Translations under genes and position numbers: made by a program
DNA from: Schmidtea polychroa
Taxonomy: Eukaryota
Direction: 5' to 3'
Length of the DNA: 64,000 nucleotides
NCBI GenBank assembly: GCA_044892525.1
Contig: CM097885.1
Location: 35,900,001-35,964,000 of the forward strand
In this document: in pieces, positions 591 through 61,490 of the stretch
How the letters are laid out: each line of letters begins with the position of its first letter
How positions within the stretch are numbered: the stretch's first letter is position 1
Notes under the pieces: model-generated
Told to the model about the DNA's origin: nothing
Seen by the model: the letters and a program-made list of their open reading frames with translations, nothing else
The model's database searches: none

Positions 591-8551
<7,961 letters not shown>

Positions 8552-8891: not shown

Positions 8892-10288
8892 TGATGGGTT
8901 ATAGAGTTGGTGATAATTTAATGTTACTCTGACTCCAAACATGTCTTTATACGATTCACAAATAACACTTGACAACAGAAATCGGACCATAAGTCAAATT
9001 TCCCCCCTTTTTTGATCAATGGTAAAATTTCCCCCAATAAAAGAATAATAAATAATTAATTAAATAATTTTTATTATTATTTTTAAAAAATATTTTTTTT
9101 TCAAAGTTCCCGCCAACGAAAATTATTCATCTATAGCTCATTTTAAAGCTCAATCCAAGACCTTTCGAATGAGCCATATATCTTGTTATTACGATTATTA
9201 TTTCTAAAGATATTATTATTATTAGTATTAATCTATATACTCCGAGTCTATCCGACAAAATATTCTGTCCCCCTATGGGTAATGCTCACAAGGGTACTGC
9301 TCACGCTCAACAACTCACAAGGGTATTATTAAACAAATCAACATTGTATTATTATTACAAAGTTTTATTATTATTATTATTATTAGTATATTTTTTAATT
9401 TTTAAATTTATTAAATTAATAAAATTTATTTAATTAAAATCAATGGTCAAATTTCCCCCTGGGGGGAAATTTGACTTATGATCCCAGAAATCTTTATTGA
9501 TAATTACAAATAACTTTCACTTTACACTGACAATAAATTCAACACTTTGCTTGGTGACTATACAATGCTTATTACAACACTCAGTGAGAAATAGCACTTG
9601 CGTATAACACCGGATTAAAAGATCACAAATTACTGATTGGTTTATCGACTGGGACTTTGAGATGGTAGTTTTCTCTGAGCTTCACAAATTTATTCAAGTA
9701 ACTTCTTTTCGTTTAATTTTTCAACTACTTTTATTCAACAATTATTCTTCACAATCATTTCTCCGACAACGTTTTGTCCGACGTAATCTAATTATTCTCC
9801 AATAATTTTATCTCTCAAATTGTCTTAATTTCGCGTCACTTTTTGTCTCTAATTTTGTCTCTGCTAGTTTTTTTTATATAGTTTGCTTATATTGTGACAC
9901 TCAGGATAATCAAGTATTTTTCCACTTTCTTTCTCCTGCTTTCCCCGACTGTTCCATTTTTATCTCTGACGGCTGTCAAGTTATTTTTCCTTTGTTGTTT
10001 GACCGCCTTTTCCCAGCAATTCTACTATCATTGACAAGCTGTCAAGATGAGAGTATTGTTGTTTTTCCTATTTTCCCAATTTCGAAATTACTTTTCCTTT
10101 TTGTACTAATTATTTAGTACTGACCTTTGTTTTTATTTTAATTTCTTTTGTTTCCTTCCTCTTTCTCATTTCTTTTTGCTTCCGCTTTCTTTTCTGAGTT
10201 CCCACCGATCGTTCCGTTTGTCATGATGATCTTTACCCAGGTAATTTTATTTATTTATTTCTAAATTGTTATTTAGGTATCCTCAATA
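8892..10288. mobile_element. Solo LTR (copy A) interrupted by a MITE
   Basis: TGATGG...CCTCAATA ends with a 4-bp TSD CAGG (8888-8891 and 10289-10292). Colinear with solo LTR 34281-35305. Confidence 0.85.
8984..9484. mobile_element. 501-bp MITE, Merlin-like (GG termini, 8-bp TSD)
   Basis: TIR GGA(C/T)CATAAGTCAAATTTCCCCC and perfect TSD CAGAAATC (8976-8983 and 9485-9492). The empty site is visible in LTR copy B at about 34367-34374. Confidence 0.85.
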
Positions 10289-11000
10289 CAGGGAAGATTG
10301 ATTGAAATCGTGTTCAATATTATTTATATTCTATTTATTGCCCATAGTAGCCAGAACTGAAATATCCGACATCTGGAAAGCTAGGCTAAGAGAATTGAGA
10401 GCTCTTGGAAATTACATTTGTCATTATTTACATTTCGAAAAGATCAAAAAAAATATTAGGTTAGAGAAAAAGAAATCCATTTTCATGTTCATTTTGATGC
10501 TTTGTTTAATATGGTTACAAGAAACGCCGTACTATCGCAAATGCAATAGCAGCAATCGATGTTTTTCCCCAAATTGTAAATACATTAGAAAAACTTCTAC
10601 AAAAGCAAGAAAATATCACGAATTGAAAGAAAAAACAAAAATGAAAATTCAAAAACGATCGTTTTCAAAACTAAAATTAATTGAAAATTGTCTACAATAT
10701 CACTGGAAAGACTTTTTGGATTAGAAATATTGTCGATTGAAAATGTAACAGCCAAAACAATTGATTACAATGATATAATTGTTGACTACCAACAAAAGAA
10801 CTAGAAAAATTAATTAAAATCAACAGAAATGAATACAATAAAGTTTAAAAAAAATTTTTAATGTCTGCACAGTGAGTAGGTAGATAGTGGCCCACCGCAG
10901 CAATGACCCCCCCCCCGGGGGGGGGGGGGGTCATTGCTGCAACTTTTTTTTGCTGCAACTCACATTTTTTGCTGCAACTTTTGATTTCGCAATTTTTCAG

Positions 11001-12340
11001 ACTATAGTGAAGGGGTCTCGATGGTCCTGGGATTTTCAATACAAAAAATTTTTTTCTATACAAAAATCCGACTACCACTAAAAAAGCCAAGGATTTATCA
11101 CACTATAGTGAGAGGGTCTCGATGGTCCTGGGATTTTCAATACAAAAAATTTTTTTCTATACAAAAATCCTACTACCACTAAAAAAGCCAAGGATTTTTC
11201 AGACTATAGTGAGGTGGGTCTCCTTGGTCCTGGAATTTTCAATACAAATAAAATTTTTTCAATAGAAAATTCGACTATCAATAAAAAAGCATGGATTTTT
11301 CTAGTTCAATTAAGGTGGGTCTCCTTGGTCCTGAGAAAAAGGTGGTCTACACTAAAAAACGTGGTCCTGAGAATTTCAATACAAAAAGGCAGTATACACT
11401 AAAAAAGAGTGGCAATTTAAGATCTCAGGATATTTTCAATAGAAAAAGGCGGTCTTCAATAAAAAAGCATGGTAATTTAAGGTCTCAGGATATTTTCAAT
11501 ACAAAAAGGCAGTATACACTAAAAAAGAGTGGCAATTTAAGGTCTCAGGATATTTTCAATAGAAAAAGGTGGTCTTCAATAAAAAAGCATGGTAATTTAA
11601 GGTCTCAGGATATTTTCAATAGAAAAAGGTGGTCTACACTAAAAAAGAGTGGCAATTTAAGGTCTCAGGATATTTTCAATACAAAAATCCGATTATCAAT
11701 AAAAAGCATGGATTTTTCTAGGCCAATTAATGCGGGTCTCCTTGGTCCTGAGAAAAAGGTGGTCTACACTAAAAAACGTGGTAAATTTTTTCAATTAAAG
11801 TAAATTATGGTTCTAAAAATTAAATTAAAGTAAATTATGGTCCAAATTTTTAAATTAAAGTAAATTATGGGTCTAAAAATTGAATTAAAGTAAATTATGG
11901 GCTAAGATTTTTGAATTAAAGTAAATTATGGTTCAAATTTTTCAATAACAGTAAATTTAGGTTCTAAAATATTAAATTACAGTAAATTATGGTCCAAATT
12001 TTTCAATTACAGTTAATTATGGTCCTAAAAAATTAAATTAAAGTAAATTATGGTTCTAAAAATTAAATTAAAGTAAATAATGGTCCTAAAAAATTAAATT
12101 AAAGTAAATAATGGTCCTAAAAAATTAAATTACAGTAAATTATGGTCCAAATTTTTAAATTACAGTAAATTATGGTCTAAAAATTAAATTAAAGTAAATT
12201 ATGGTTCAAATTTTTAAATTAAAGTAATGAATGGGCTCAAATAACTAAATTAAGGTTCTAAAAAATTAAATTAAAGTTAATTAAGGTCCAAATTTTAAAA
12301 TTAAGTAATCAATGGTCAAAAATTTTAAATTAAAGTTAAA
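11001..12340. repeat. Subterminal tandem arrays of the left arm (about 101-bp, 60-bp and about 31-bp units), mirrored at about 25200-26790
   Basis: actatagtg recurs at 11001, 11102 and 11203. 60-bp units alternate as A/B variants at about 11370-11690. AATTAAAGTAAATTATGG units at about 11780-12340. Confidence 0.9.
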
Positions 12341-12654
12341 TAAGTAAATTAAAGTAATAATTTTTAAATAAGTAATGTAATAAGTAAATTAAAGTAAGAT
12401 TTTAAAATTTATTAACAAAAAGTTGAAATAATAGAAGGTGTTTGAGAATTGAAATTTTTTAATGAAAATTTTTATGAAATAATTTTTTAAGTAATTTTTA
12501 ATAGAAATTTTTATGGAATAATTTTTTAAGTTAATTTTTAATGGAAATTTTTATGAAATATTTTTCAATGATAATTTTAGATGGAAATTTTTAAGATAAT
12601 TTTTAATGAAAATTTCTATGAAATATTTTTCAAAGACAAATTTTAATAATAATT

Positions 12655-13430
12655 CAACAACAAACCAACAACTTAGTACCAACAACCAGTAACTTATGAA
12701 CATGTATTAACAATCAGATACCTACAACTAGTTACTAACAACCTGCTACCAAGTACTTACAATCAGTTACCTGCTACCAAATACTTTCAACATGATACCA
12801 CGTACTAAATAACTCTCAAACAACCAGATACTTACAACCAATTACCAGATACCAAGTACCTACAACTAGTTACTAACAACTAGTTACCTGATACTAAGTA
12901 TCTACAACCATCTAACAAGTACTAACAACCAAAAACAAGCAACCAACTAGGTACCAAGTACTAACAACCGACAACAACTAACTACCACCTACCAAGTACC
13001 TACAACCACATACTAACCACTAGGTACTAGATACCAAGTACATACAACCAACATCAACCTGTTACTAAGCATTATTAACCACCTACCAAGTACCTACAAC
13101 CACCTACCCATTAACTAGTTACTAAGTACTATCAACCAACTAGGTACTAGATACCAAGTACTAACAACCAACAACAACCAGGTACTAATCATTAATTACC
13201 AATTACTAAGTACCTACAACCATCTACCAAGTACATACAACCAAGTACTAAGTACCTACAACCGACTAGCTACCACCTACCAAGTACCACCAACAACGAG
13301 ATACCTACAACTAGATACTAACAACTAGGTACCAGATACCTACTACTCACAGCCGTCAACAACCAGGTACTAAGCATCATCAACCAAGTAATAACAACTA
13401 GATACCTAGTACTTACAACCAGATGACCAC
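12655..13430. repeat. Strand-asymmetric C/A-rich degenerate satellite (ACCAAGTACCTACA-like), mirrored at about 24110-24885
   Basis: Directly visible. Related patches occur at 14020-14150 and 14560-14895. Confidence 0.85.
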
Positions 13431-13954
13431 ATGAAATTATTGGTTAAATAAGTAAATTAATGTCTAATTTTAAAATTAAGTAATCAATGGTCTAAAATAT
13501 TAAAGTTAAAGTCAATTTAAGATGAAAGTTTTCTGGGATTTTCAATGTTAATTTTAGATGCAAATCTTCGTCAATTAATCAATGACCACATAAAATTATT
13601 AGTTAAATATGAAAATAAGGGTTATAATTAGTTGTTTAGTAAATTATGGTGTAAAATTAAGAAATAAAGAATAATTAGGTAAATTAAGGATAAATTAAGG
13701 AAAATTAAGGTTCAAAATTTAAAATTAAGTAACCAATGGTTCAAATTTTAAATTAAAGCTAAATAAGTAAATTAAAGTAAGATTTTTAAATTTATTATCA
13801 AAAGATTGAATAACCACCAACTTTTTTGAGAAATGTAATTTTTAATGAAAATTTAAATGGAAATTTTTTTTAAGTTAATTTTAAATGTAAAATTTTTTAA
13901 GTTAATTTTAATGAAATAATTTTTTAAGTTAATTTTTTAATGGAAATTTTAATG

Positions 13955-14015
<61 letters not shown>

Positions 14016-17000
14016 TCAACAGTTCCCAACAATCGGTTACTAAATATTTTTAACTAGATGCTAACAAATACTTTGAACATGATACCACGTACTAACTAAC
14101 TCTCAAACAACCAGATACCTACAACTAGTTACTAACAACCAACTAAGTATTCTTTATTGTATTTTATGAAATGTTTTTAAATTAATTTTTTATCTGTCTT
14201 TAAAAATATGTTTAATTACAATCAATAGAAAACCTTTTCAAAATGTCTAAATTTAACAAACATGTTGACTTTCATCAAAAAACCACAACTCAATCACTTT
14301 AAAACACCACGTGAAATTCAAAATAATTTAAATTACAATGAAATACTAATGAATTCTAATTTACAAAAACATCTTCTTTTAAATGATAACTTATTATTGC
14401 AAAGTAAAAATCACATTCAATAAATACTTATTGTTGATCAGTTTTATTATATATACTCTGAGTTTATCCGACAGGATGTTTTGACCCCCTAAGGGTACTG
14501 GTCGTAAGGGTACTGGTCGTAAGGGTATTAGTCGTAAAGGTACTGGTCGTAAGGCTATTGGTAACACTCAACCACCACCTACTCATTAATTAACTACCAT
14601 GTACTAACAACCAGGTCTCAAACAACTAAATACTAAACACTTACAACCCACAACAACCAGCTACTAAGCATTATCAACCTACAACTATATAACAACACTG
14701 TACCAGCTACCAAATACAAGATACCAAGTACCAACAATCAACTAACCACACATAAAAATAATAGCAATTAAATACAAAATATTCTTCATCACATACACTA
14801 TCTTCTTATCAAAATCTAAAAAGTCAATCAGATACCAACTACCAACTACCAAGTACTAACAACCAACTACCTACAACCAACAACTATGTACTAACAAATT
14901 GATCTTTAAAAGAAAAATACTCATCACTTGAAAAATTAGATGGAAAATTAATTGAACTCAAGACATCAATAACTTGGTAAAAATTGATTAAATAATTGCA
15001 AAAATTTAAATTTACTCAAAATAAATATCATAAAAATTTAATTAATAGACAAGAAAGAATTCTATTCATTAATCATCCAGTAAATAAAAAAATACTGATC
15101 ATTCAAGTTGAATCAACTAAGATAATAAATTAATAAGATAAGATTTAGTAGATAATTGATTTAGATTGAATAAATTAATTGAAATAAAATTAATTTTAAT
15201 TATTTTTTTTTAAAAATAATACATGTACTCAAATTGATTGACTGAATGCTCAAAATATTCAAAAATCAGTATAAATTCATTAAAATTATCAATGTCATCA
15301 ATCTACAATAAAAATAATTATCATTAAATTCCAAAAGAGACTAGAAAACTAACAAACCAGAAAATTCATTCAAATGACAATAATTGGTATATTCAAGCGA
15401 ATTCTCTAATAAAATCATCTAAAAAGAATCATTTCGCCTGAAATATCTCTATTTTTAAAGATTAGTATCTTATCGATAAGTACTTGTTAAATATCATATA
15501 TTCACCTCAAACTAACAAGATTCCTTAAAATCCCTTAAATGACTATATTTCTACCCTTAATTCATATTATTACAAATAATTCATTAAAATCATCTAAAAA
15601 GCATCAAATATCCCTGAAATACCTCTATCTTTAAAGATTGGTATCTTATCGATAAGTACCCGTAAAAGGTCATATATTCCCCTCAGATTAATAAGATTGC
15701 TTAAAATCCCCTTTAAATGACTATAATTCTAACTTTAATTCCTATTATCATACATATTTCACTATTGATAAAACCAGTTATAATTAAATTTTTGTTAATC
15801 ACTGTAAATTTTTGTAAATTACTGTACCCGAAATTTAAAATAAATATAACCCATTGAAAGATTAAATTTATCCATTCAATAAAATATATTTATTCAAATG
15901 GTCAACTTTTGTCGTTGTCCACCTAAATAAAGATAAAAATAATTTAAAGTTGATATCAATCCCAATTATCTGTAAAGATTTCATTATCAAAACCAAGTAA
16001 ATCGATCATTATCCATACTTAATAAAACATTGTTCTAAATTAATTTACTGTGCATTAATCACAACCTAATAAAACAATATAATTATTATTGATTCATAAC
16101 TAATGTATTGACATTTCCCTTAAAACATTGATATTTTACCAACATTTCCCTTTCAATGATATATTCCCATCTTAACCCATCCTTCATTAAATTAAATCGA
16201 CTATATCTCCCTTACAATGATTTATTCCCATCTAAACCCATCTCTCATTAAATTTAATCGACTATATCTCCCTTAAAAGATCATATTTTCCCATCTTAAC
16301 CGATCTCTCATTTAAGTCAATCGACTATATCTCCCTTACAATGATATATTCCCATCTTAACCCATCCCTCATTAAATTTAACCGACTATATCCCCTCAAA
16401 AGATCATATTTTCCCCACCTTATCCGATCTCTCATTAAATCTAACCGACAATATCCCATCTTATCCGATCTCTCACCAAATATTTCTACCCTTTTAAACA
16501 TCTAACCGAATATATCCTTCAATTCTATCCACTTGAATCCTCCTTTAATTCACTCAATCCTCTTAAAATCCTTAGAGAACTTCAAAAATATGACTTAATT
16601 GTTACAGACACCAAATATTCTTCCATTGAAATAATTTAGTAGCTATGTAGTAAGAGTTCACTAAAAGATCAAAAATCAATATTTTCTACAAATATTTACC
16701 ATCAAATACTGGAGATGAAAAATATTGTTTGATTATAATTCTTCATCGATTCAACCAATCATTTTCAAGCAATAACAGCAAACTAAATTTCTGTATATCC
16801 TACAATAATTATCAAGTAAATTTTAAGTTATTGATAAAGTTAACTAGTTTCTTAGCTCATGTTTTTTAAAGTTCATCAATGAGTAAATATTCTTAGAAAA
16901 TTATTGAAAAAATTATTTAGTGAAATATATTACAAACTTATCATTAAAAATTTATTCTATCACTTGAAATTAATTATTATTTAAAAACTATTCAATAAAA

Positions 17001-20000
17001 TACCACTAATTATCAAGAAATTAATTAAATTTATCAATTAAATTTATCACCATTATAACTTTTAATCAGTCAACATGAAATTCTTAGAAAATTATTCAAT
17101 ATCCTCATCAAAATTTATTCTATCACTTGATTATTGTAAAAACTCTAATTATTAACCTCATTAAAAATAAATTTTTATTTAAAAACAAGTCAATAAAAAT
17201 ACATCCAATTATCAAGAAATTAATTAAATTTACCTTAGAATTAGCATTAAATTACAGATATTCACAAAAAATTAGGGATATTCACAAAAATGATAGAAAT
17301 CTGCAAAAATAATAGAAATTCACAAAAAACGATAAAAATTCACAAAAATGATAGATATCCACAAAAATTACAGATAATCACAAAAATTACGGAAAATAAT
17401 AGAAATCCGCAAAAATAATAGAAATTCACAAAAAACGATAAAAATTCACAATAAAAAAACGATAAAAATTCACAAAAATTATAGAAATTTACTTGAATAT
17501 TTACTAAACCATCAACTCTAAAAATTATCAATGAATGCCTTAAACCTCAAATTTGTCTAAATAATTATTTAATAAAAGCATTAAATACCTTTACGACTAA
17601 TACACTTACGACATGTTGAATGTGAGTAGTACCCTTGTGAGCAATACCCATAGGGGGACAGAATATTTTGTCGGATAAACTCAGAGTATATATTAATTAA
17701 CTCATTCAAATTTTTCATTGAATTAGTCAAATTATCATAAATTTCGATAAAAATTCTAAAGTGGTAAGCAATGAAAAGAGAAATATTCTTTAAACTTTGA
17801 TAAAATTAACAATGAAAGGGGTAAGAATCTTCATTAAAGTGAGGAAATTATTCATTACTCGATGATAAATTCAAATGGGTGAAAATAATTGGTAGAATAA
17901 TTTATTAATGGATCATTGAATGTGCTGGGAAGGTTGATAAGAATGGAAGTATATTAATTGAATTTATTTAAAATTATTTCATAAAATTCATAAATTTAAT
18001 AAAAAAAAAATCTTAAAAGAAATATCTGTGGGGAATAATTAATGGAAAATCATAAGAATATAGGTGAATAATTAATGGAAAATTGGGGGATATAAGTGAA
18101 TAATTAATGGAAAATTGGGGGATATAAGTGAATAATTAATGGAAAATCGAGGGGATACAAATGAAAAATCCTGTGGATACAAATGATTAAATAATGGAAG
18201 ATTGAGAGTCGTGGGAATATAAGTGAGAAGGATATGTAATTTAAACTATTTTATTACATAACAAGCCGTGAATAGTATTTTACCAACATTTTTAAAGTAT
18301 GTAATTTAATTTTAATTTTATTTTTAAATTGTACATATTTTGAATATCATTCTATTGTTTAATTTCGATAATAAGTATAAAAAGTCTATAATGATTAATA
18401 AATTAATATCTTGTTAACATTTACCAGAGAATTTTAAAAAACTTTACTTAAAATTTAGTGAAGTATTTAATTTTGATTGTACTTTATAAGACATATATTT
18501 GAGTATTAACTTATTTTGATTGAAGTATCACATTCAATATTATGATGATTTTTTTTTTCTAAATTGAAATATTTTAGTGTAAAATAGTTAATTTGATAAT
18601 AAATAGAATACAATGTTAAAGGACTTTTTGAAAAAAAAGTTAGTTTCTACTGCCTAATCAATAAGTTTAAAAAGTTTAGAACTGTTAATAAATCAATTTC
18701 TTATTCGCATTTACATATAAAATTTTTATTTTTAAATTAAAGTATTAAATTGATGATTTAATTTTAATTGTATTTGAATGATACATTTAATTTACTTTGA
18801 TTGAAAGGAGTAATATAATTCATATTATGATATTTGTTTTCGAAATATTTAGTGTAGAATAGTAAATTTAATAATATATAGCTATTATTACAAGTATTTA
18901 TTCAACAAAAAAAAAACTTTATTTCTATTGTCTTATTCCATCAATAAGATTAAGTCTATATCTGGTAAAAAAAATTTTCTGATTTACATTTATTTAAAAA
19001 AGCTTTACTTATAAAATTTATATTTTTAAAATTTAATTTTGATTATATTTTCTAAGACTTATATTTGAATATTTAACTTATTTTGAATGAAAAGGGTAAT
19101 GTATATATTATTATCTTTTATGATAATTTTTTTTGAAATACATAATACAAATTAAAAAATTTTAGTAATAATTTGCAATTATTTTAGTCAAAAATTAAAA
19201 AAAAGACCTATTCCATATTTCTTAATCAAATACCATTCACAGCTTGTTATATAATAAAATAGCCGCGGATTGTTATGTAATAAAATAGTTTAAATTACAT
19301 ATCCTTCTCACTTATATTCCCACGATTCTCAATCTTCCATTAATTAATCATTTGTATCCACAGGATTTTTCATTTGTATCCCCTCGATTTTCCATTAATT
19401 ATTCACTTATATCCCCCAATTTTCCATTAATTATTCACTTATATCCCCCAATTTTCCATTAATTATTCACCTATATTCTTATGATTTTCCATTAATTATT
19501 CCCCACAGATATTTCTTTTAAGATTTTTTTTTATTAAATTTATGAATTTTATGAAATAATTTTAAATAAATTCAATTAATATACTTCCATTCTTATCAAC
19601 CTTCCCAGCACATTCAATGATCCATTAATAAATTATTCTACCAATTATTTTCACCCATTTGAATTTATCATCGAGTAATGAATAATTTCCTCACTTTAAT
19701 GAAGATTCTTACCCCTTTCATTGTTAATTTTATCAAAGTTTAAAGAATATTTCTCTTTTCATTGCTTACCACTTTAGAATTTTTATCGAAATTTATGATA
19801 ATTTGACTAATTCAATGAAAAATTTGAATGAGTTAATTAATATATACTCTGAGTTTATCCGACAAAATATTCTGTCCCCCTATGGGTATTGCTCACAAGG
19901 GTACTACTCACATTCAACATGTCGTAAGTGTATTAGTCGTAAAGGTATTTAATGCTTTTATTAAATAATTATTTAGACAAATTTGAGGTTTAAGGCATTC

Positions 20001-23000
20001 ATTGATAATTTTTAGAGTTGATGGTTTAGTAAATATTCAAGTAAATTTCTATAATTTTTGTGAATTTTTATCGTTTTTTTATTGTGAATTTTTATCGTTT
20101 TTTGTGAATTTCTATTATTTTTGCGGATTTCTATTATTTTCCGTAATTTTTGTGATTATCTGTAATTTTTGTGGATATCTATCATTTTTGTGAATTTTTA
20201 TCGTTTTTTGTGAATTTCTATTATTTTTGCAGATTTCTATCATTTTTGTGAATATCCCTAATTTTTTGTGAATATCTGTAATTTAATGCTAATTCTAAGG
20301 TAAATTTAATTAATTTCTTGATAATTGGATGTATTTTTATTGACTTGTTTTTAAATAAAAATTTATTTTTAATGAGGTTAATAATTAGAGTTTTTACAAT
20401 AATCAAGTGATAGAATAAATTTTGATGAGGATATTGAATAATTTTCTAAGAATTTCATGTTGACTGATTAAAAGTTATAATGGTGATAAATTTAATTGAT
20501 AAATTTAATTAATTTCTTGATAATTAGTGGTATTTTATTGAATAGTTTTTAAATAATAATTAATTTCAAGTGATAGAATAAATTTTTAATGATAAGTTTG
20601 TAATATATTTCACTAAATAATTTTTTCAATAATTTTCTAAGAATATTTACTCATTGATGAACTTTAAAAAACATGAGCTAAGAAACTAGTTAACTTTATC
20701 AATAACTTAAAATTTACTTGATAATTATTGTAGGATATACAGAAATTTAGTTTGCTGTTATTGCTTGAAAATGATTGGTTGAATCGATGAAGAATTATAA
20801 TCAAACAATATATTTCATCTCCAGTATTTGATGGTAAATATTTGTAGAAAATATTGATTTTTGATCTTTTAGTGAACTCTTACTACATAGCTACTAAATT
20901 ATTTCAATGGAAGAATATTTGGTGTCTGTAACAATTAAGTCATATTTTTGAAGTTCTCTAAGGATTTTAAGAGGATTGAGTGAATTAAAGGAGGATTCAA
21001 GTGGATAGAATTGAAGGATATATTCGGTTAGATGTTTAAAAGGGTAGAAATATTTGGTGAGAGATCGGATAAGATGGGATATTGTCGGTTAGATTTAATG
21101 AGAGATCGGATAAGGTGGGGAAAATATGATCTTTTGAGGGGATATAGTCGGTTAAATTTAATGAGGGATGGGTTAAGATGGGAATATATCATTGTAAGGG
21201 AGATATAGTCGATTGACTTAAATGAGAGATCGGTTAAGATGGGAAAATATGATCTTTTAAGGGAGATATAGTCGATTAAATTTAATGAGAGATGGGTTTA
21301 GATGGGAATAAATCATTGTAAGGGAGATATAGTCGATTTAATTTAATGAAGGATGGGTTAAGATGGGAATATATCATTGAAAGGGAAATGTTGGTAAAAT
21401 ATCAATGTTTTAAGGGAAATGTCAATACATTAGTTATGAATCAATAATAATTATATTGTTTTATTAGGTTGTGATTAATGCACAGTAAATTAATTTAGAA
21501 CAATGTTTTATTAAGTATGGATAATGATCGATTTACTTGGTTTTGATAATGAAATCTTTACAGATAATTGGGATTGATATCAACTTTAAATTATTTTTAT
21601 CTTTATTTAGGTGGACAACGACAAAAGTTGACCATTTGAATAAATATATTTTATTGAATGGATAAATTTAATCTTTCAATGGGTTATATTTATTTTAAAT
21701 TTCGGGTACAGTAATTTACAAAAATTTACAGTGATTAACAAAAATTTAATTATAACTGGTTTTATCAATAGTGAAATATGTATGATAATAGGAATTAAAG
21801 TTAGAATTATAGTCATTTAAAGGGGATTTTAAGCAATCTTATTAATCTGAGGGGAATATATGACCTTTTACGGGTACTTATCGATAAGATACCAATCTTT
21901 AAAGATAGAGGTATTTCAGGGATATTTGATGCTTTTTAGATGATTTTAATGAATTATTTGTAATAATATGAATTAAGGGTAGAAATATAGTCATTTAAGG
22001 GATTTTAAGGAATCTTGTTAGTTTGAGGTGAATATATGATATTTAACAAGTACTTATCGATAAGATACTAATCTTTAAAAATAGAGATATTTCAGGCGAA
22101 ATGATTCTTTTTAGATGATTTTATTAGAGAATTCGCTTGAATATACCAATTATTGTCATTTGAATGAATTTTCTGGTTTGTTAGTTTTCTAGTCTCTTTT
22201 GGAATTTAATGATAATTATTTTTATTGTAGATTGATGACATTGATAATTTTAATGAATTTATACTGATTTTTGAATATTTTGAGCATTCAGTCAATCAAT
22301 TTGAGTACATGTATTATTTTTAAAAAAAAATAATTAAAATTAATTTTATTTCAATTAATTTATTCAATCTAAATCAATTATCTACTAAATCTTATCTTAT
22401 TAATTTATTATCTTAGTTGATTCAACTTGAATGATCAGTATTTTTTTATTTACTGGATGATTAATGAATAGAATTCTTTCTTGTCTATTAATTAAATTTT
22501 TATGATATTTATTTTGAGTAAATTTAAATTTTTGCAATTATTTAATCAATTTTTACCAAGTTATTGATGTCTTGAGTTCAATTAATTTTCCATCTAATTT
22601 TTCAAGTGATGAGTATTTTTCTTTTAAAGATCAATTTGTTAGTACATAGTTGTTGGTTGTAGGTAGTTGGTTGTTAGTACTTGGTAGTTGGTAGTTGGTA
22701 TCTGATTGACTTTTTAGATTTTGATAAGAAGATAGTGTATGTGATGAAGAATATTTTGTATTTAATTGCTATTATTTTTATGTGTGGTTAGTTGATTGTT
22801 GGTACTTGGTATCTTGTATTTGGTAGCTGGTACAGTGTTGTTATATAGTTGTAGGTTGATAATGCTTAGTAGCTGGTTGTTGTGGGTTGTAAGTGTTTAG
22901 TATTTAGTTGTTTGAGACCTGGTTGTTAGTACATGGTAGTTAATTAATGAGTAGGTGGTGGTTGAGTGTTACCAATAGCCTTACGACCAGTACCTTTACG

Positions 23001-23532
23001 ACTAATACCCTTACGACCAGTACCCTTACGACCAGTACCCTTACGACCAGTGCCCTTAGGGGGTCAAAACATCCTGTCGGATAAACTCAGAGTATATATA
23101 ATAAAACTGATCAACAATAAGTATTTATTGAATGTGATTTTTACTTTGCAATAATAAGTTATCATTTAAAAGAAGATGTTTTTGTAAATTAGAATTCATT
23201 AGTATTTCATTGTAATTTAAATTATTTTGAATTTCACGTGGTGTTTTAAAGTGATTGAGTTGTGGTTTTTTGATGAAAGTCAACATGTTTGTTAAATTTA
23301 GACATTTTGAAAAGGTTTTCTATTGATTGTAATTAAACATATTTTTAAAGACAGATAAAAAATTAATTTAAAAACATTTCATAAAATACAATAAAGAATA
23401 CTTAGTTGGTTGTTAGTAACTAGTTGTAGGTATCTGGTTGTTTGAGAGTTAGTTAGTACGTGGTATCATGTTCAAAGTATTTGTTAGCATCTAGTTAAAA
23501 ATATTTAGTAACCGATTGTTGGGAACTGTTGA

Positions 23533-23584
<52 letters not shown>

Positions 23585-25556
23585 CATTAAAATTTCCATT
23601 AAAAAATTAACTTAAAAAATTATTTCATTAAAATTAACTTAAAAAATTTTACATTTAAAATTAACTTAAAAAAAATTTCCATTTAAATTTTCATTAAAAA
23701 TTACATTTCTCAAAAAAGTTGGTGGTTATTCAATCTTTTGATAATAAATTTAAAAATCTTACTTTAATTTACTTATTTAGCTTTAATTTAAAATTTGAAC
23801 CATTGGTTACTTAATTTTAAATTTTGAACCTTAATTTTCCTTAATTTATCCTTAATTTACCTAATTATTCTTTATTTCTTAATTTTACACCATAATTTAC
23901 TAAACAACTAATTATAACCCTTATTTTCATATTTAACTAATAATTTCATGTGGTCATTGATTAATTGACGAAGATTTGCATCTAAAATTAACATTGAAAA
24001 TCCCAGAAAACTTTCATCTTAAATTGACTTTAACTTTAATATTTTAGACCATTGATTACTTAATTTTAAAATTAGACATTAATTTACTTATTTAACCAAT
24101 AATTTCATGTGGTCATCTGGTTGTAAGTACTAGGTATCTAGTTGTTATTACTTGGTTGATGATGCTTAGTACCTGGTTGTTGACGGCTGTGAGTAGTAGG
24201 TATCTGGTACCTAGTTGTTAGTATCTAGTTGTAGGTATCTCGTTGTTGGTGGTACTTGGTAGGTGGTAGCTAGTCGGTTGTAGGTACTTAGTACTTGGTT
24301 GTATGTACTTGGTAGATGGTTGTAGGTACTTAGTAATTGGTAATTAATGATTAGTACCTGGTTGTTGTTGGTTGTTAGTACTTGGTATCTAGTACCTAGT
24401 TGGTTGATAGTACTTAGTAACTAGTTAATGGGTAGGTGGTTGTAGGTACTTGGTAGGTGGTTAATAATGCTTAGTAACAGGTTGATGTTGGTTGTATGTA
24501 CTTGGTATCTAGTACCTAGTGGTTAGTATGTGGTTGTAGGTACTTGGTAGGTGGTAGTTAGTTGTTGTCGGTTGTTAGTACTTGGTACCTAGTTGGTTGC
24601 TTGTTTTTGGTTGTTAGTACTTGTTAGATGGTTGTAGATACTTAGTATCAGGTAACTAGTTGTTAGTAACTAGTTGTAGGTACTTGGTATCTGGTAATTG
24701 GTTGTAAGTATCTGGTTGTTTGAGAGTTATTTAGTACGTGGTATCATGTTGAAAGTATTTGGTAGCAGGTAACTGATTGTAAGTACTTGGTAGCAGGTTG
24801 TTAGTAACTAGTTGTAGGTATCTGATTGTTAATACATGTTCATAAGTTACTGGTTGTTGGTACTAAGTTGTTGGTTTGTTGTTGAATTATTATTAAAATT
24901 TGTCTTTGAAAAATATTTCATAGAAATTTTCATTAAAAATTATCTTAAAAATTTCCATCTAAAATTATCATTGAAAAATATTTCATAAAAATTTCCATTA
25001 AAAATTAACTTAAAAAATTATTCCATAAAAATTTCTATTAAAAATTACTTAAAAAATTATTTCATAAAAATTTTCATTAAAAAATTTCAATTCTCAAACA
25101 CCTTCTATTATTTCAACTTTTTGTTAATAAATTTTAAAATCTTACTTTAATTTACTTATTACATTACTTATTTAAAAATTATTACTTTAATTTACTTATT
25201 TAACTTTAATTTAAAATTTTTGACCATTGATTACTTAATTTTAAAATTTGGACCTTAATTAACTTTAATTTAATTTTTTAGAACCTTAATTTAGTTATTT
25301 GAGCCCATTCATTACTTTAATTTAAAAATTTGAACCATAATTTACTTTAATTTAATTTTTAGACCATAATTTACTGTAATTTAAAAATTTGGACCATAAT
25401 TTACTGTAATTTAATTTTTTAGGACCATTATTTACTTTAATTTAATTTTTTAGGACCATTATTTACTTTAATTTAATTTTTAGAACCATAATTTACTTTA
25501 ATTTAATTTTTTAGGACCATAATTAACTGTAATTGAAAAATTTGGACCATAATTTA

Positions 25557-25772
25557 CCGTATTTTAGCGCATATAACGCGCACGGTATCTGATTACAATA
25601 AACAATAAAACCGATGGTAGAGTTACTGTCACATCATAAAAATATTTCCACTGGCAATGCCGCCACGTGTAAAATATAAATCATAAAGCGCGCACCCACA
25701 GATACCGCGCATGGGGGGTGCACGGTTTGTAAAAATGCGTATAACGTGCGCGTTATATGCGCTAAAATACGG
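25557..25772. mobile_element. 216-bp Tc1/mariner(pogo)-type MITE inserted in the right arm only
   Basis: TA|CCGTATTTTAGCGCATATAACGCGCACG...CGTGCGCGTTATATGCGCTAAAATACGG|TA. The empty TA site is at 11983-11984 in the left arm. Confidence 0.95.
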
Positions 25773-27892
25773 TACTGTAATTTAATATTTTAGAACCTAA
25801 ATTTACTGTTATTGAAAAATTTGAACCATAATTTACTTTAATTCAAAAATCTTAGCCCATAATTTACTTTAATTCAATTTTTAGACCCATAATTTACTTT
25901 AATTTAAAAATTTGGACCATAATTTACTTTAATTTAATTTTTTAGAACCAAAATTTACTTTAATTTAATTTTTAGAACCATAATTTACTTTAATTGAAAA
26001 AATTTACCACGTTTTTTAGTGTAGACCACCTTTTTCTCAGGACCAAGGAGACCCGCATTAATTGGCCTAGAAAAATCCATGCTTTTTATTGATAATCGGA
26101 TTTTTGTATTGAAAATATCCTGAGACCTTAAATTGCCACTCTTTTTTAGTGTAGACCACCTTTTTCTATTGAAAATATCCTGAGACCTTAAATTACCATG
26201 CTTTTTTATTGAAGACCACCTTTTTCTATTGAAAATATCCTGAGACCTTAAATTGCCACTCTTTTTTAGTGTATACTGCCTTTTTGTATTGAAAATATCC
26301 TGAGACCTTAAATTACCATGCTTTTTTATTGAAGACCGCCTTTTTCTATTGAAAATATCCTGAGACCTTAAATTGCCACTCTTTTTTAGTGTATACTGCC
26401 TTTTCGTATTGAAATTCTCAGGACCACGTTTTTTAGTGTAGACCACCTTTTTCTCAGGACCAAGGAGACCCACCTTAATTGAACTAGAAAAATCCATGCT
26501 TTTTTATTGATAGTCGAATTTTCTATTGAAAAAATTTTATTTGTATTGAAAATTCCAGGACCAAGGAGACCCACCTCACTATAGTCTGAAAAATCCTTCG
26601 CTTTTTTAGTGGTAGTAGGATTTTTGTATAGAAAAAAATTTTTTGTATAGAAAATCCCAGGACCATCGAGACCCTCTCACTATAGTGTGATAAATCCTTG
26701 GCTTTTTTAGTGGTAGTCGGATTTTTGTATAGAAAAAAATTTTTTGTATTGAAAATCCCAGGACCATCGAGACCCCTTCACTATAGTCTGAAAAATTGCG
26801 TAATCAAAAGTTGCAGCAAAAAAAAGTTGCAGCAACCCCCCCCCCCCCGGGGGGGGGGTCATTGCTGCGGTGGGCCACTATCTACCTACTACAGTGCCCC
26901 CAAAAATTACAGCACGAATTACTAATTCCTAAATATCATTTTTATTAACGGTTGGTGAGTGTTCACTTTTATAGTGAGTTATAGAAAAATGGGGTCTTTT
27001 TATAAACCCAACCACTTTCTTAAAGTTTTCGAGAAAATCATTGTTTTATTGTATTATCTGCTATGAAAATACATTCGAAAACATTTTTGAAACTAATTTA
27101 TCAGCAAAAGGGTAATATTTTTGTTCTTTCTAATATAAATAGAAGTCAATTTATTGAATATTACGGTTATAGATAATATTTATAGTGTATTTATCATAAT
27201 ATGTGAGAAGAATTCATTGAAAATTTTAATTTTGTCCTGCAGTAAATCATGTATGATCTTCTCGGTGGGATATACCATAGTGCCTTATTGTGAATGAAAT
27301 TGTTCCTTCATATATTACTTTTATAATTATTTTTGACATAATCCTATTCTATTATTAAAAGGCTTAAACTAAAATAGTAGATTTGTCATATTTCTGGACC
27401 TCACTTGGAAAAATGTTCAAGAGCCATTGCTAGAATAATTTATACTTCTGTACAAGAATGAAAAAAAACGTTCAGAATAAGGGCGTGTTGTAGTTTTATC
27501 ATCATTTTTAGACTTCAACAGATATTTCAAACAGGCTGGGAAATTCTAAATCATCTAAATATTTTTCTTTTATCTTTCCTTCTTTATAATTAATTTTGTT
27601 TTAAAAATAATATTAAAATGGAACTAAATAATTAGTCACTAAGTTCTTGGGTGTAACCATTCAGAAAAAATCTTTTTTGATATTTTAAAATTACTTTGCA
27701 ATTAATAGTATTTATATGTGTAATGTAGACATACATTGAAACAAAATTGTAAATAATATTATGATAACAAATTTTTTTGAAATTTAGTCTAAAAACGAAT
27801 TAGTTAAAACTACATTTAAATGAAAGAAATATATTAAAGATTATAATTCAATATAAAATTATTCTTCTCTCAATCTTCCGGGGTCTCATTAA

Positions 27893-32681: not shown

Positions 32682-34215
32682 TAGAGTTGCCAACTCCCAC
32701 AACCTCGAACCCGGGAGATTATAAAATTGCGAACAGTATAACGCTGAAGAAATAATATAACAGGTGATTTTTCACTATTTTGGTTTACACATGTTAGTGA
32801 TTTTAACTATATGATGACTAATACCATAAAGATTTAAACAAAACAATAGTTTTTACATATTACATTTTACATATTTTACATTTTAAAAGTGAAAAAAACC
32901 TGACAGTGACAGACTAATAACGTGAGTAAGAAGAAAAACATAAAATCGCTCGCCGCGAACAAACAACTTAAACTTCCGGTGACTGTGAGCAAAAATAAAT
33001 CTTGACTATCTGATTCAACTGAATAAACATCGAAACAGTTTTATTACAATCAACATCATCAGTTGTCTTTGGATATAGTTCAGCCTCCAATTGCTTTCCA
33101 CCAACTGCAACAGCTCGATGTCCAGCTACGAAGCCACTGGGATCAGTTTTGAATAATAACGGTTTGTCCATTTCAACATCATACGATAATGCTATCATTG
33201 AACAACCTAATGGTCGCATCTCAGCCGATTGGGTATAGAGCTGATTAATATCCGCCATACAACGACATATTATATCACAAGGCATTTCATATCCAATTTT
33301 AGATTTAAATCGAGCTGCTTCCATTTGTGCACGATATACTTGAGGTCGACAATCAGGGATCATACCAGTCATACCACCTGCAGTACTTTCAGTGATATTA
33401 AACAATCTTGTAGCTGAACTCTTCTCAATCATTTTATCTGGAACTTCTCTTTTTGCAACAATATGCACCACACAATTAATTTTCCTAGCAATGAGTATCT
33501 CCCCAATCCAAATTTTATGTTTATCGTTAAATCTGAAACGCTTCATTTTATCATTTAGAATAATGTTCTGGTAAATCGTTTGAACATAGAAAACACCGAT
33601 TTTGCTTATGTAACTTTCAGTATAAGCATCATCTGCCAATCTGAGTAATAAACAAGATTTTCCAACAACAGAATCTCCAATTAATAGAAGCTTGAATAAA
33701 TAGTCATACTCTGGATTCATTTAATTATTGTCAACGTTCCGGTTTCGATAAACAGATAAACAATTATAATTACAAAGCATTTACAATTCCAGAAATTTCC
33801 GCAAAACATAAAAAATCCATTGATTTAGAAAAACAAAATCTCTAAAAAACTAATATAAAACTTACAAATTAACAGTAAAAGACCTACTTCTCGCGTCTGT
33901 GTGCGCACACCAACAAGAATCGGTCTAACCAGACCGCGCACACAGACACGATAGAAAAATCACCAAACTAACTGCCGGTCAGAGGCAATCCCCCTCTGAC
34001 TGGTCGAAACACTATCATTATTTTAGAGAAATCAAATAAAAGTTAAAACGTCTAAAACTGCACTTTTTTCTTGAAATATTGTAAAATATTCTAAAAACGG
34101 AAAGACGGCAGATTTATATCCCCCTTACATACCCGGGTCATAGTTAACCGGGAGACGGGAGACGAAAGCCGATTCCGGGAGACTCCCGGCAAAAACGGGA
34201 GAGTTGGCCAGCCTA
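32682..34215. mobile_element. Non-autonomous hAT element carrying captured host coding sequence (Pack-TIR-like)
   Basis: TIRs TAGAGTTGCCAACTCCC and GGGAGAGTTGGCCAGCCTA, an 8-bp TSD AATAGAGA/AATATAGA (7/8), and subterminal CCGGGAGA repeats at both ends. Confidence 0.75.
32968..33720 (-). CDS. Intronless chimeric ORF (250 aa): Rab1 N-terminus fused in frame to a proteasome subunit alpha type-6 core
   Basis: aa 1-43 [43 protein letters not shown] match Rab1. aa about 79-216 (VPDK...[20 protein letters not shown]...GYEMPCD...[12 protein letters not shown]...KTDPSG) match PSMA6. Probably a retro-derived pseudogene or chimera. Confidence 0.85.
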
Positions 34216-34280: not shown

Positions 34281-35305
34281 TGTTGGTTTATTGAGTTGGT
34301 GATAAATTTAAATGTTACTCTGACTCCAAACGTGTCTTTATACTATCCACAGATAACACTTAACAACAGAAATCTTTATTGATAATTACAAAGAAACTTT
34401 CTCTTTACACTGACAATCAATACAATACTCTGCTTGGTGATTATACAATGCTTATTACAACTCTCGGTGAGAAATAGCACTTGCGTATAACACCGGATTA
34501 AAAGATTACAAATTACTGATTGGTTTATCAACTGGGACTTTGGGCCGGTTGTTTGCTCTGACCTTCTTCACAAATTTATTTAAATACTCAAGTAATTTTT
34601 CGTTTTTTTTCACTAATTCTATTCTTCAACTCTTCGCCAATAATTATTCTCCACAATCGTTTTCTTTACAATTATTTTTCACAATTTTTTTTCCAACAAC
34701 ATTTCGTCCAACGTTGTCTAATTTTCTCCAATAATTTTATCTCTCAAATTGTTTTCCAAAAATTCTCAATTTCGCGTCACTTTTTGTCTCAATTTGTCTC
34801 TCATGTTTCGTCTATATTTCGCGTCACTCTTTGTCTCTAATTTTGTCTGATTTTGTCTCTGATAGTTTCTCTTTATATAGTTTGCTTATATTGTGGCACT
34901 CAAGTCAATTAAGTGTTTTTCCACTTTCTTTCTCCTGCCTTTCCAAACTGTTCAATTTTTATCTCTGACGGCTGTCAAGATAGTTTCCTTTTTACCTTTT
35001 TTGTTCAACCGCCTTCTCCCTGTCAATTACGTTTACACTGGCAAGCTGTCAAGATAAGAATATTGTTGTTTTTCTTTTTTCCCGATTTCGAAATTCCTTT
35101 TCCTTTTTGTACTAATTACCTTAATTACCTTGGTTTTTATTTTCTTATTTAATTTCTTTTGTTTCATTCCTCTTTCTCATTTCTCATTTCTTTTTACTTC
35201 GTTTTCTTTTCTGAGTTCCCATAGACCGTCCCGTTTGTCATGATGATCTTTCCCCAGGTAATTTTATTTGTTTATTTAGAAATTGTTATTTAGGTATCCT
35301 CAACA
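34281..35305. mobile_element. Solo LTR (copy B), 1025 bp
   Basis: TGTTG...CAACA ends with a 4-bp TSD ATTG (34277-34280 and 35306-35309). Same family as 8892-10288. Confidence 0.9.
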
Positions 35306-40905: not shown

Positions 40906-44688
<3,783 letters not shown>

Positions 44689-60586: not shown

Positions 60587-61490
60587 AGTAGGGTAACATG
60601 TGGACCCAGGAACAAAGAACTATTATATAATCGATGACGTCACAGTGGAAATTACTACAAATCCTTTACCCCCGGGGTGTTTTTTTGAATTTTTTAAAAA
60701 AATTATGTAACAAAGACATGATACGTTACAAATGAATATTACACAACAAAGATATATTACGTAACAAATACATATTACACAACAATTACATATTACATAA
60801 CAAAAACATATTACATAAACAAAGTCATATTATGCAATAAATACATATTACGTAACAAATTCATTAAGTTAAAAAGCCCTATTATGTAACAAAGACATTT
60901 TAACAAAGACATAAATTTAAATAAAGGACTATTACATAACAAAGACATTTTCACAAAGACACATAACTCATCATACTTTTTAAATATATTACGTTGCGGT
61001 ATTTTAAACTTTAAATATATTTTAAAAACTTATTTTGACGCTAAAGTTGACATAAAGTTTTAGTAGGGTAACATGTGGACCCGGGAACAAATAACTATTG
61101 CGTAATCGATGACGTCACAAACGAAATTATGTCATACCTTTACCCGGGGTTTTTTAGAATAAAAAATTAAAAATACATAACAAAGAAATATCACATTACA
61201 AAGATATATTATGTAACAAAATATTTTACGTAGCAAAGGAATATTACATAACAAAGACATTTTACACAACAAAGACATATTACATAACAAAGACATATTA
61301 CATAACAAAGTTATATTACATAACAAAGGCATATTACACAACAAAGACATTTTAGCAAAGACATAAATTTAAACAAAGGACTATTATGTAACAAAGAAAC
61401 ATGACTCATCATACTTTTTAAATATATTACGTTGCGGTATTTTAAAATTTAAATATATTTTAAAAACTTATTTTGACGCTAAAGTTGACA
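60587..61490. repeat. Two tandem units of about 430-475 bp, each with an internal array of about 18-20 bp (TATTACATAACAAAGACA)
   Basis: AGTAGGGTAACATGTGGACC at 60587 and 61062. Each unit ends TTTTGACGCTAAAGTTGACA. Confidence 0.85.

Follow-up and report, generated by a model that had tools for sequence, protein, structure and literature searches.

The window analyzed here, a 64,000-nucleotide stretch of the Schmidtea polychroa genome (contig CM097885.1; G000:C1:35900001-35964000), contains an element of 16,016 bp (10875 to 26890 of the window) that is flanked by two copies of the 6-mer ACAGTG and is palindromic over almost its whole length, inverted repeats making up 93.8% of it (Table 1). Searches for its relatives covered the 781-Mb assembly. 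The coordinates, the termini, and the 6-bp target site duplication (TSD) are those of an initial annotation made from the sequence alone, which had also put the share of terminal inverted repeat (TIR) at about 94% and the spacer between the arms at about 1 kb (measured, 997 bp). Its inverted arms likewise stand, but its arm lengths of 7,390 and 7,621 bp do not, each falling 4 bp short of the 7,394 and 7,625 bp given by BLAST. In a global alignment up to position 18257, seven indels (4, 19, 31, 218, 9, 15, and 1 bp) and nine substitutions separate the arms. The 218-bp difference is a separate MITE (miniature inverted-repeat transposable element) of 216 bp with a TA duplication, presumably of the Tc1/mariner type, which occurs in the right arm only; all 40 of the copies of this MITE that were scored, out of 304 candidates, were ~100% identical. 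Since the MITE lies in one arm only and its copies are ~100% identical, it probably arrived after the arms were last equalized.

The AGTAGGTAG... terminus of the element is identical to the ends of gene-bearing Polintons in the same genome, to which we refer as helpers. Two full Polintons of 16,406 and 16,532 bp, at which such termini lie next to pPolB matches, bear these termini, with exact 6-bp duplications and inverted repeats of ~1.2 to 1.6 kb; autonomous partners with pPolB, integrase, ATPase, and capsid genes between the same ends, for which the initial annotation had suggested a search, are thus present. One annotated helper (L073) encodes an A32-type ATPase, an integrase with a chromodomain, a TBP-like open reading frame (ORF), an Adeno_PX-like ORF, and a pPolB of 1,419 codons. 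A 407-residue helper protein has a predicted structure (predicted local distance difference test [pLDDT] score, 90.6) that matches the double-jelly-roll capsids of iridovirus and PBCV-1 in Foldseek (E ~1e-14), and on this model the helper family encodes a predicted double-jelly-roll capsid protein. Among six helper copies, the frame was open in six for ATPase, five for pPolB, four for capsid, and five for the TBP-like protein, with frames cut by a fetch edge scored as not open. The TBP-like protein (L073:3255-3731, minus strand) matches PF00352 (E, 3e-16), and a small ORF (L073:4607-4933, plus strand) has a stretch resembling adenovirus protein X (mu core) at the Pfam cutoff. Neighboring ORFs of 341 codons (L073:6157-7182) and 338 codons (7175-8191), both on the plus strand, match one gene of a sister subfamily, which suggests from sequence that they are a tandem duplicate; Atlas puts one of them near Preplasmiviricota proteins.

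By contrast with an autonomous Polinton, the element has no pPolB, integrase, capsid, ATPase, or protease gene, and its inverted repeats are not of Polinton length. The initial annotation had seen no real ORF in it, and checks of reading frames, tblastn, Pfam, and Rfam all agree. The only stop-free frame of at least 100 codons is that at 11285 to 11803, together with its mirror, within 60-bp repeats. We rejected this 170-codon frame as a gene because it is unconserved, with an ATG frame of at least 100 codons at that place in just 7 of 52 family and helper ends; its single Pfam match was below the cutoff. A tblastn search of the element with 11 helper proteins, including the pPolB, integrase, ATPase, and capsid set, returned no match, and degraded helper genes within the arm were rejected on this ground; an Rfam scan of the element returned nothing that reached gathering scores. 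A gene in the loop was also rejected, no conserved frame being found in 10/10 spacers; in the window's spacer, the longest open frame has 53 codons, no more than chance would give (median of shuffles, 50).

Homology to helpers in the arm is restricted to arm positions 1 to 1,779 (~73 to 83% identity for the window copy) and to an internal copy of the subterminal repeat at arm positions ~2,570 to 3,140, the inner 5.6 kb and the spacer having no other helper counterpart. Tandem arrays occupy 84% of the zone in common with helpers and 42% of the remaining arm (52% of the whole arm), compared with 6% of two flanking controls, and the spacer is itself a decayed direct duplication of ~290 bp (67 to 73% identity). 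Because the inner arm and spacer lack helper homology and are rich in repeats, the element is not a deletion remnant of a helper, and its interior appears to have grown by duplication. The proposal of a non-autonomous, Polinton-dependent element is supported, but that of a plain snap-back of the helper genome is not, since only the outer ~1.78 kb matches helpers; plain snap-backs do occur among polymerase-bearing relatives. A former polymerase-upstream region was considered as the origin of the inner arm and rejected: the match occurs in one polymerase-bearing fold-back only, which looks recombinant. Near the terminus, beginning 22 bases from the element end, is a hairpin with a 20-bp stem. 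Across 82 family and helper ends, this stem has three variants (27, 24, and 19), and its two sides pair in 70 of 71 scorable ends, a count in which related copies are not independent events; such covariation may reflect selection on the structure or repeated self-correction. The ends are of the AG...CT type with a short repeated motif, as initially described, but the terminus reads AGTAGG, whereas vertebrate Mavericks have (AGT)2 (PMC8097293).

The element is a member of an abundant gene-less family and not an artifact. A degenerate 30-letter pattern of its ends has 550 exact matches in the assembly (reversed control, 0), a lower bound given that further end variants exist, and its arm-spacer junction has 239 matches at ≤1 mismatch (control, 0), among which some copies are counted twice. 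From the first 100 ends listed, 33 facing pairs were matched by hand (median, 16,330 bp), 20 of them spanning 14.0 to 18.6 kb, 6 shorter, and 7 longer. One of these pairs is the window copy, 21 were read through (one with a 1.1-kb gap), 10 were seen at their ends only, and one stands outside the duplication count. Exact 6-bp duplications, each a different 6-mer, flank 26 of the 31 other pairs (19/21 read through and 7/10 seen at their ends only). The termini thus recur elsewhere with different 6-bp TSDs and bound Polintons, contrary to the outcome that the initial annotation had named as damaging to its reading. By gene content, the 21 pairs read through, which were picked by terminus alone, comprise 17 gene-less copies and 4 Polintons of 16.3 to 17.8 kb with the helper gene set. 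Inverted arms are present at 10/10 spacer loci. In seven of ten further copies picked by spacer, both ends lie within 10 kb, and six of these seven have matching 6-mers, one of the six in an AAT run. Several arrangements of termini stand apart. Two end pairs with exact 6-bp duplications, G000:C1:2877368-2910893 (33.5 kb) and C1:25758942-25792374 (33.4 kb), are about twice the unit length and are candidates for nested insertions or dimers. At G000:C1:213.93-213.95 Mb (L005, L014, and L015), three termini recur with a 4,019-bp period, each abutting a match to the helper integrase gene at the interruption described below, and at L023 (G000:C1:130489720-130489959), two termini stand back to back with zero host DNA between them.

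The two arms of a copy mostly resemble each other far more than they resemble the arms of other copies. Among 20 gene-less copies, 63% of 659 within-copy comparisons of 400-bp windows were at least 99% identical, versus 5% of 23,541 between-copy comparisons (median identities, 99.75% and 92.2%). Along the arm, the nearest neighbor shifts, in the window copy as in others, so that arms are patchworks between copies. The terminal 30-mers, of which there are 12 variants, are concordant in 30 of the 33 pairs, whereas shuffling gives 4.2 (maximum, 14 in 100,000 shuffles). Sharing extends to helpers, whose 250-bp end tracts reach 99 to 100% identity to gene-less copies, with exact common prefixes of up to 323 bp. 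Fold-backs also recur: all five facing pPolB pairs examined are fold-backs, four with recognizable ends and exact duplications (15,493, 15,994, 12,591, and 7,403 bp), and gene-less copies with new turning points occur. The 7.4-kb fold-back turns within pPolB at a hairpin with a 7-bp stem and a 5-base loop, which is present in 9/9 of the unfolded pPolB copies printed. Self-primed reverse copying of a helper end fits the pattern of this polymerase-bearing relative; the window element is not traceable in this way. Another polymerase-bearing fold-back (L079/L080), inserted in a divergent pPolB gene, bears a piece of gene-less arm and, at its center, a mini-element of ~300 bp with two termini.

On the basis of the shared termini, the 6-bp duplications, the hundreds of relatives, and the tract-by-tract sharing of ends with helpers, we propose, with a probability of roughly 0.7, that the element is a gene-less satellite of the Polinton/Maverick family in the same genome, one that probably borrows Polinton enzymes. 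The proposed steps of its movement would be as follows. The helper integrase would release and insert the element, and the helper's protein-primed polymerase would copy it from its ends, off the chromosome, by strand displacement. In adenovirus-type panhandle models, a displaced strand that refolds restores the origin. Here, the displaced strand could fold back to form a stem of 7.4 kb closed by a loop of 1 kb; such folding would rebuild a double-stranded origin and allow one arm to be corrected against the other, while displaced strands of different copies and helpers might pair or switch template, giving patchwork arms. The fold-back shape would arise anew whenever a nascent strand primed itself at a short hairpin, and the interior would have been enlarged by tandem duplication, not from helper genes.

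Several observations weigh against this proposal. In about 6 of the 20 copies, the arms are largely discordant despite intact duplications, so arm correction is not obligatory, and chromosomal gene conversion could also yield both the matching of arms and the patchworks. The turning point of the 7.4-kb fold-back fits the prediction of self-priming in a single case. In all six helpers, the integrase frame (L073:5003-6148, plus strand, and five others) is broken by a shared short, A+T-rich interruption that contains in-frame stops, and no protease gene was recognized among 11 helper ORFs. The integrase halves around the interruption are largely open, and a sister-subfamily copy (L090) is uninterrupted; the interruption is possibly a small intron, or the sister subfamily may supply the integrase.

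The strongest competitor is a Polinton-ended foldback moved by integrase alone, cut and pasted like a giant MITE, with arms equalized and shuffled by chromosomal gene conversion and a 16-kb length that goes back to one founder. The ends, the duplications, and the copy number fit this explanation equally well, as does the lack of length compensation between arm segments (P = 0.29; see below), and modular arms rich in repeats also occur, with no polymerase, in foldbacks that belong to other superfamilies (PMC4079207). We nevertheless consider it unlikely, given that terminal 30-mers agree inside a copy even if its arms differ farther in and that snap-backs which carry a polymerase and have clean duplications, one of them with its turn at a natural hairpin, suggest that the events took place in the course of copying and prior to insertion. 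Furthermore, retrovirus-type integrases join free linear ends.

Formation of the palindrome in place, by chromosomal rearrangement of an inserted Polinton that was never mobile as such, would account for two copies (L088/L089 and L127) with mirrored flanks in place of a duplication, and both short junctions tested are single copy. For the main family it is refuted, and for the window element highly improbable, since one arm-spacer junction recurs 239 times with inverted arms at every spacer locus examined, complete copies lie at unrelated sites with different duplications, and the interior of the arm does not consist of Polinton coding sequence; some short one-off derivatives may have formed this way. 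Slighter still is the chance of a foldback of another superfamily (Mutator-type FB or Tetris, or P-type Galileo) that merely resembles a Polinton at its ends, for although such elements have long modular arms with internal tandem repeats (PMC4079207), the duplication here is 6 bp and not 8 to 10 bp, and the first 1.78 kb is Polinton homologous, with family and helpers locally 99 to 100% identical. The ends bound Polintons instead of a DDE, Mutator, or P transposase, no genome-wide search aimed at such a transposase having been made. Finally, an assembly artifact of fold-back long reads, which the lack of any read or contig across arm, spacer, and arm (short-read contigs only) would permit, has a negligible probability, because the arms differ by the MITE and other indels, the flanks are direct duplications and not mirror images, the loop is common to hundreds of loci, and both the arms and the spacer are covered by contigs from four public runs.

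Non-autonomous elements usually shrink, but this gene-less family did not. The mean length is 15,893 bp for complete copies, in which both arms and the spacer are present (n = 18; standard deviation [SD], 804), and 16,786 bp for helpers (n = 6; SD, 545), bearing out the early impression of a size close to one Polinton genome; a 20.9-kb copy with an unread center and a 16.7-kb pair without a duplication were left out of these means, and among spacer-picked copies lengths above 20 kb could not show. We tentatively raise the idea, for which we would offer odds well short of even, that an endogenous animal DNA virus has in this family a heritable satellite dependent on its capsid. As part of the same doubtful proposal, the family would have shed all its genes but been padded with tandem repeats to helper length, since stable packaging and transfer between cells would be open to unit-length DNA alone, and it would co-replicate and recombine with its helper and outnumber it. 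In its favor, the two short forms tested both have single-copy junctions, versus 239 for the unit-length junction, the filler appears to have been made by duplication, and the helper frames for capsid (4/6) and ATPase (6/6) are open. Against it, exact duplications also flank copies of 7.4 to 13.3 kb, one 16-kb founder could account for the length, and no compensation was found between the lengths of six arm segments (total variance, 493,316, versus a sum of 520,890; P = 0.29) in 37 of 40 arms, which are not independent, 3 arms having been dropped for missing anchors. A constrained size of Mavericks has been argued from analogy with the adenovirus capsid (PMC8097293). If the idea is true, the length distribution is indirect evidence of Polinton particles in this animal.

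Around the insertion, contigs of four public runs gave none that spans the element, with junction support below the 31-letter threshold. One contig reaches across the left junction, with 29 letters inside the element; it comes from X1, possibly the source sample. An X2 contig ends at 10868 with 57 letters unaligned, a weak hint of another allele. Two copies of a right-flank repeat were inspected as empty-site paralogues, and neither extends across the insertion point; a Transib-like end at the insertion site has no partner within the window. Older dispersed repeats lie in the flanks at 26930 to 27630 (49 matches) and at 9485 to 10286 and 34367 to 35303 (a 75% pair). Farther out are an open frame that combines a proteasome-subunit domain with a stretch resembling Ras at its N terminus (32971 to 33720, minus strand), a broken long terminal repeat (LTR) retrotransposon whose zinc knuckle, reverse transcriptase, RNase H, and integrase lie in frames shifted from one another (41434 to 44653, plus strand), and an array of an 18-bp unit in two blocks (60700 to 61354).

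Table 1. Features of the gene-less element and its borders, in window coordinates
Feature	Position	Strand	Remarks
Left target site duplication	10869..10874	.	6 bp, ACAGTG
Left arm	10875..18268	+	7,394 bp; BLAST and global alignment
Terminal motif	10875..10887	+	AGTAGGTAGATAG, common to autonomous Polintons; putative protein-priming and integrase end
Subterminal G+C hairpin	10897..10940	+	20-bp stem; z = -7.0
Helper-shared end zone	10875..12653	+	101-, 60-, and 30/61-bp tandem arrays; sole part homologous to autonomous Polintons
Fortuitous open frame	11285..11803	+	In 60-bp repeats; unconserved, no gene
Non-coding filler	12654..18268	+	42% tandem arrays vs 6% in flanking controls; holds internal copy of subterminal repeat module
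Spacer (loop)	18269..19265	.	997 bp, A+T rich; decayed ~290-bp direct duplications; conserved among copies, without conserved ORF
Right arm	19266..26890	-	7,625 bp, left arm inverted; BLAST and global alignment
MITE with TA duplication	25557..25772	.	216 bp, right arm only; young multicopy family
Right target site duplication	26891..26896	.	6 bp, ACAGTG

Polinton copying and particle formation in animals are inferred and not observed, particles being described as unobserved in PMC8097293. A gene-less, unit-length, palindromic satellite separates the signals that act in cis, here the outer 1.8 kb with its covarying hairpin, from the genes; the family also keeps a record of what template switching and arm correction probably produced and offers a probe far commoner than the helper for free or packaged DNA. 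The surveys cited here cannot see such families because they demand polymerase plus integrase, and short-read assemblies would break them. Full-text literature searches turned up no account of a Polinton family that is gene-less, palindromic, and of unit length, a coverage that stops short of supplementary element tables and Repbase. Prior cataloguing is possible: among older accounts, that of Kapitonov and Jurka in 2006 is said to mention non-autonomous Polintons.

Compared with known systems, the element shares with Polintons/Mavericks the 6-bp duplication, the AG...CT ends, and the end zone of this genome's own Polintons, and its 16,016 bp is near the vertebrate mean of 16,862 ± 1,678 bp (PMC8097293) and inside a published length range of 13 to 25 kb. 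Unlike them, it is gene-less, and its TIR of 7.4 kb contrasts with 46 to 1,447 bp in vertebrates or 100 to 1,500 bp (PMC8097293; bioRxiv 10.1101/2023.08.22.554363); in the terminus-picked sample, gene-less copies outnumber helper Polintons 17 to 4. Foldbacks such as FB, Tetris, and Galileo have similarly long modular arms with tandem subrepeats and a non-coding middle, but the arms here are four times as long as the Tetris arms, which reach 1,735 bp, the target site duplication measures 6 bp and not 8 to 10 bp, and the partner is a self-synthesizing, capsid-encoding Polinton and not a DDE transposase (PMC4079207). Snap-back or copy-back defective viral genomes are likewise almost fully palindromic and keep only the ends, and they depend on a helper as the element probably does; fold-backs also recur in the family described here. 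However, the element is integrated and inherited, is as long as its helper and not shorter, and has an interior that is not helper derived (PMC13506859). The nearest precedent among the sources cited here is the butterfly polintons that amplify without polB and have gene-bearing inverted repeats of ~2 kb (bioRxiv 10.1101/2025.02.07.637071). These resemble the element in being Polinton ended, in amplifying without a polymerase of their own, and in having inverted repeats longer than usual, but they retain most genes and carry long interspersed nuclear element (LINE) or LTR cargo, whereas the window element is gene-less and 94% inverted repeat. By analogy, then, the element would act as the snap-back defective genome, or as the giant MITE, of a Polinton.

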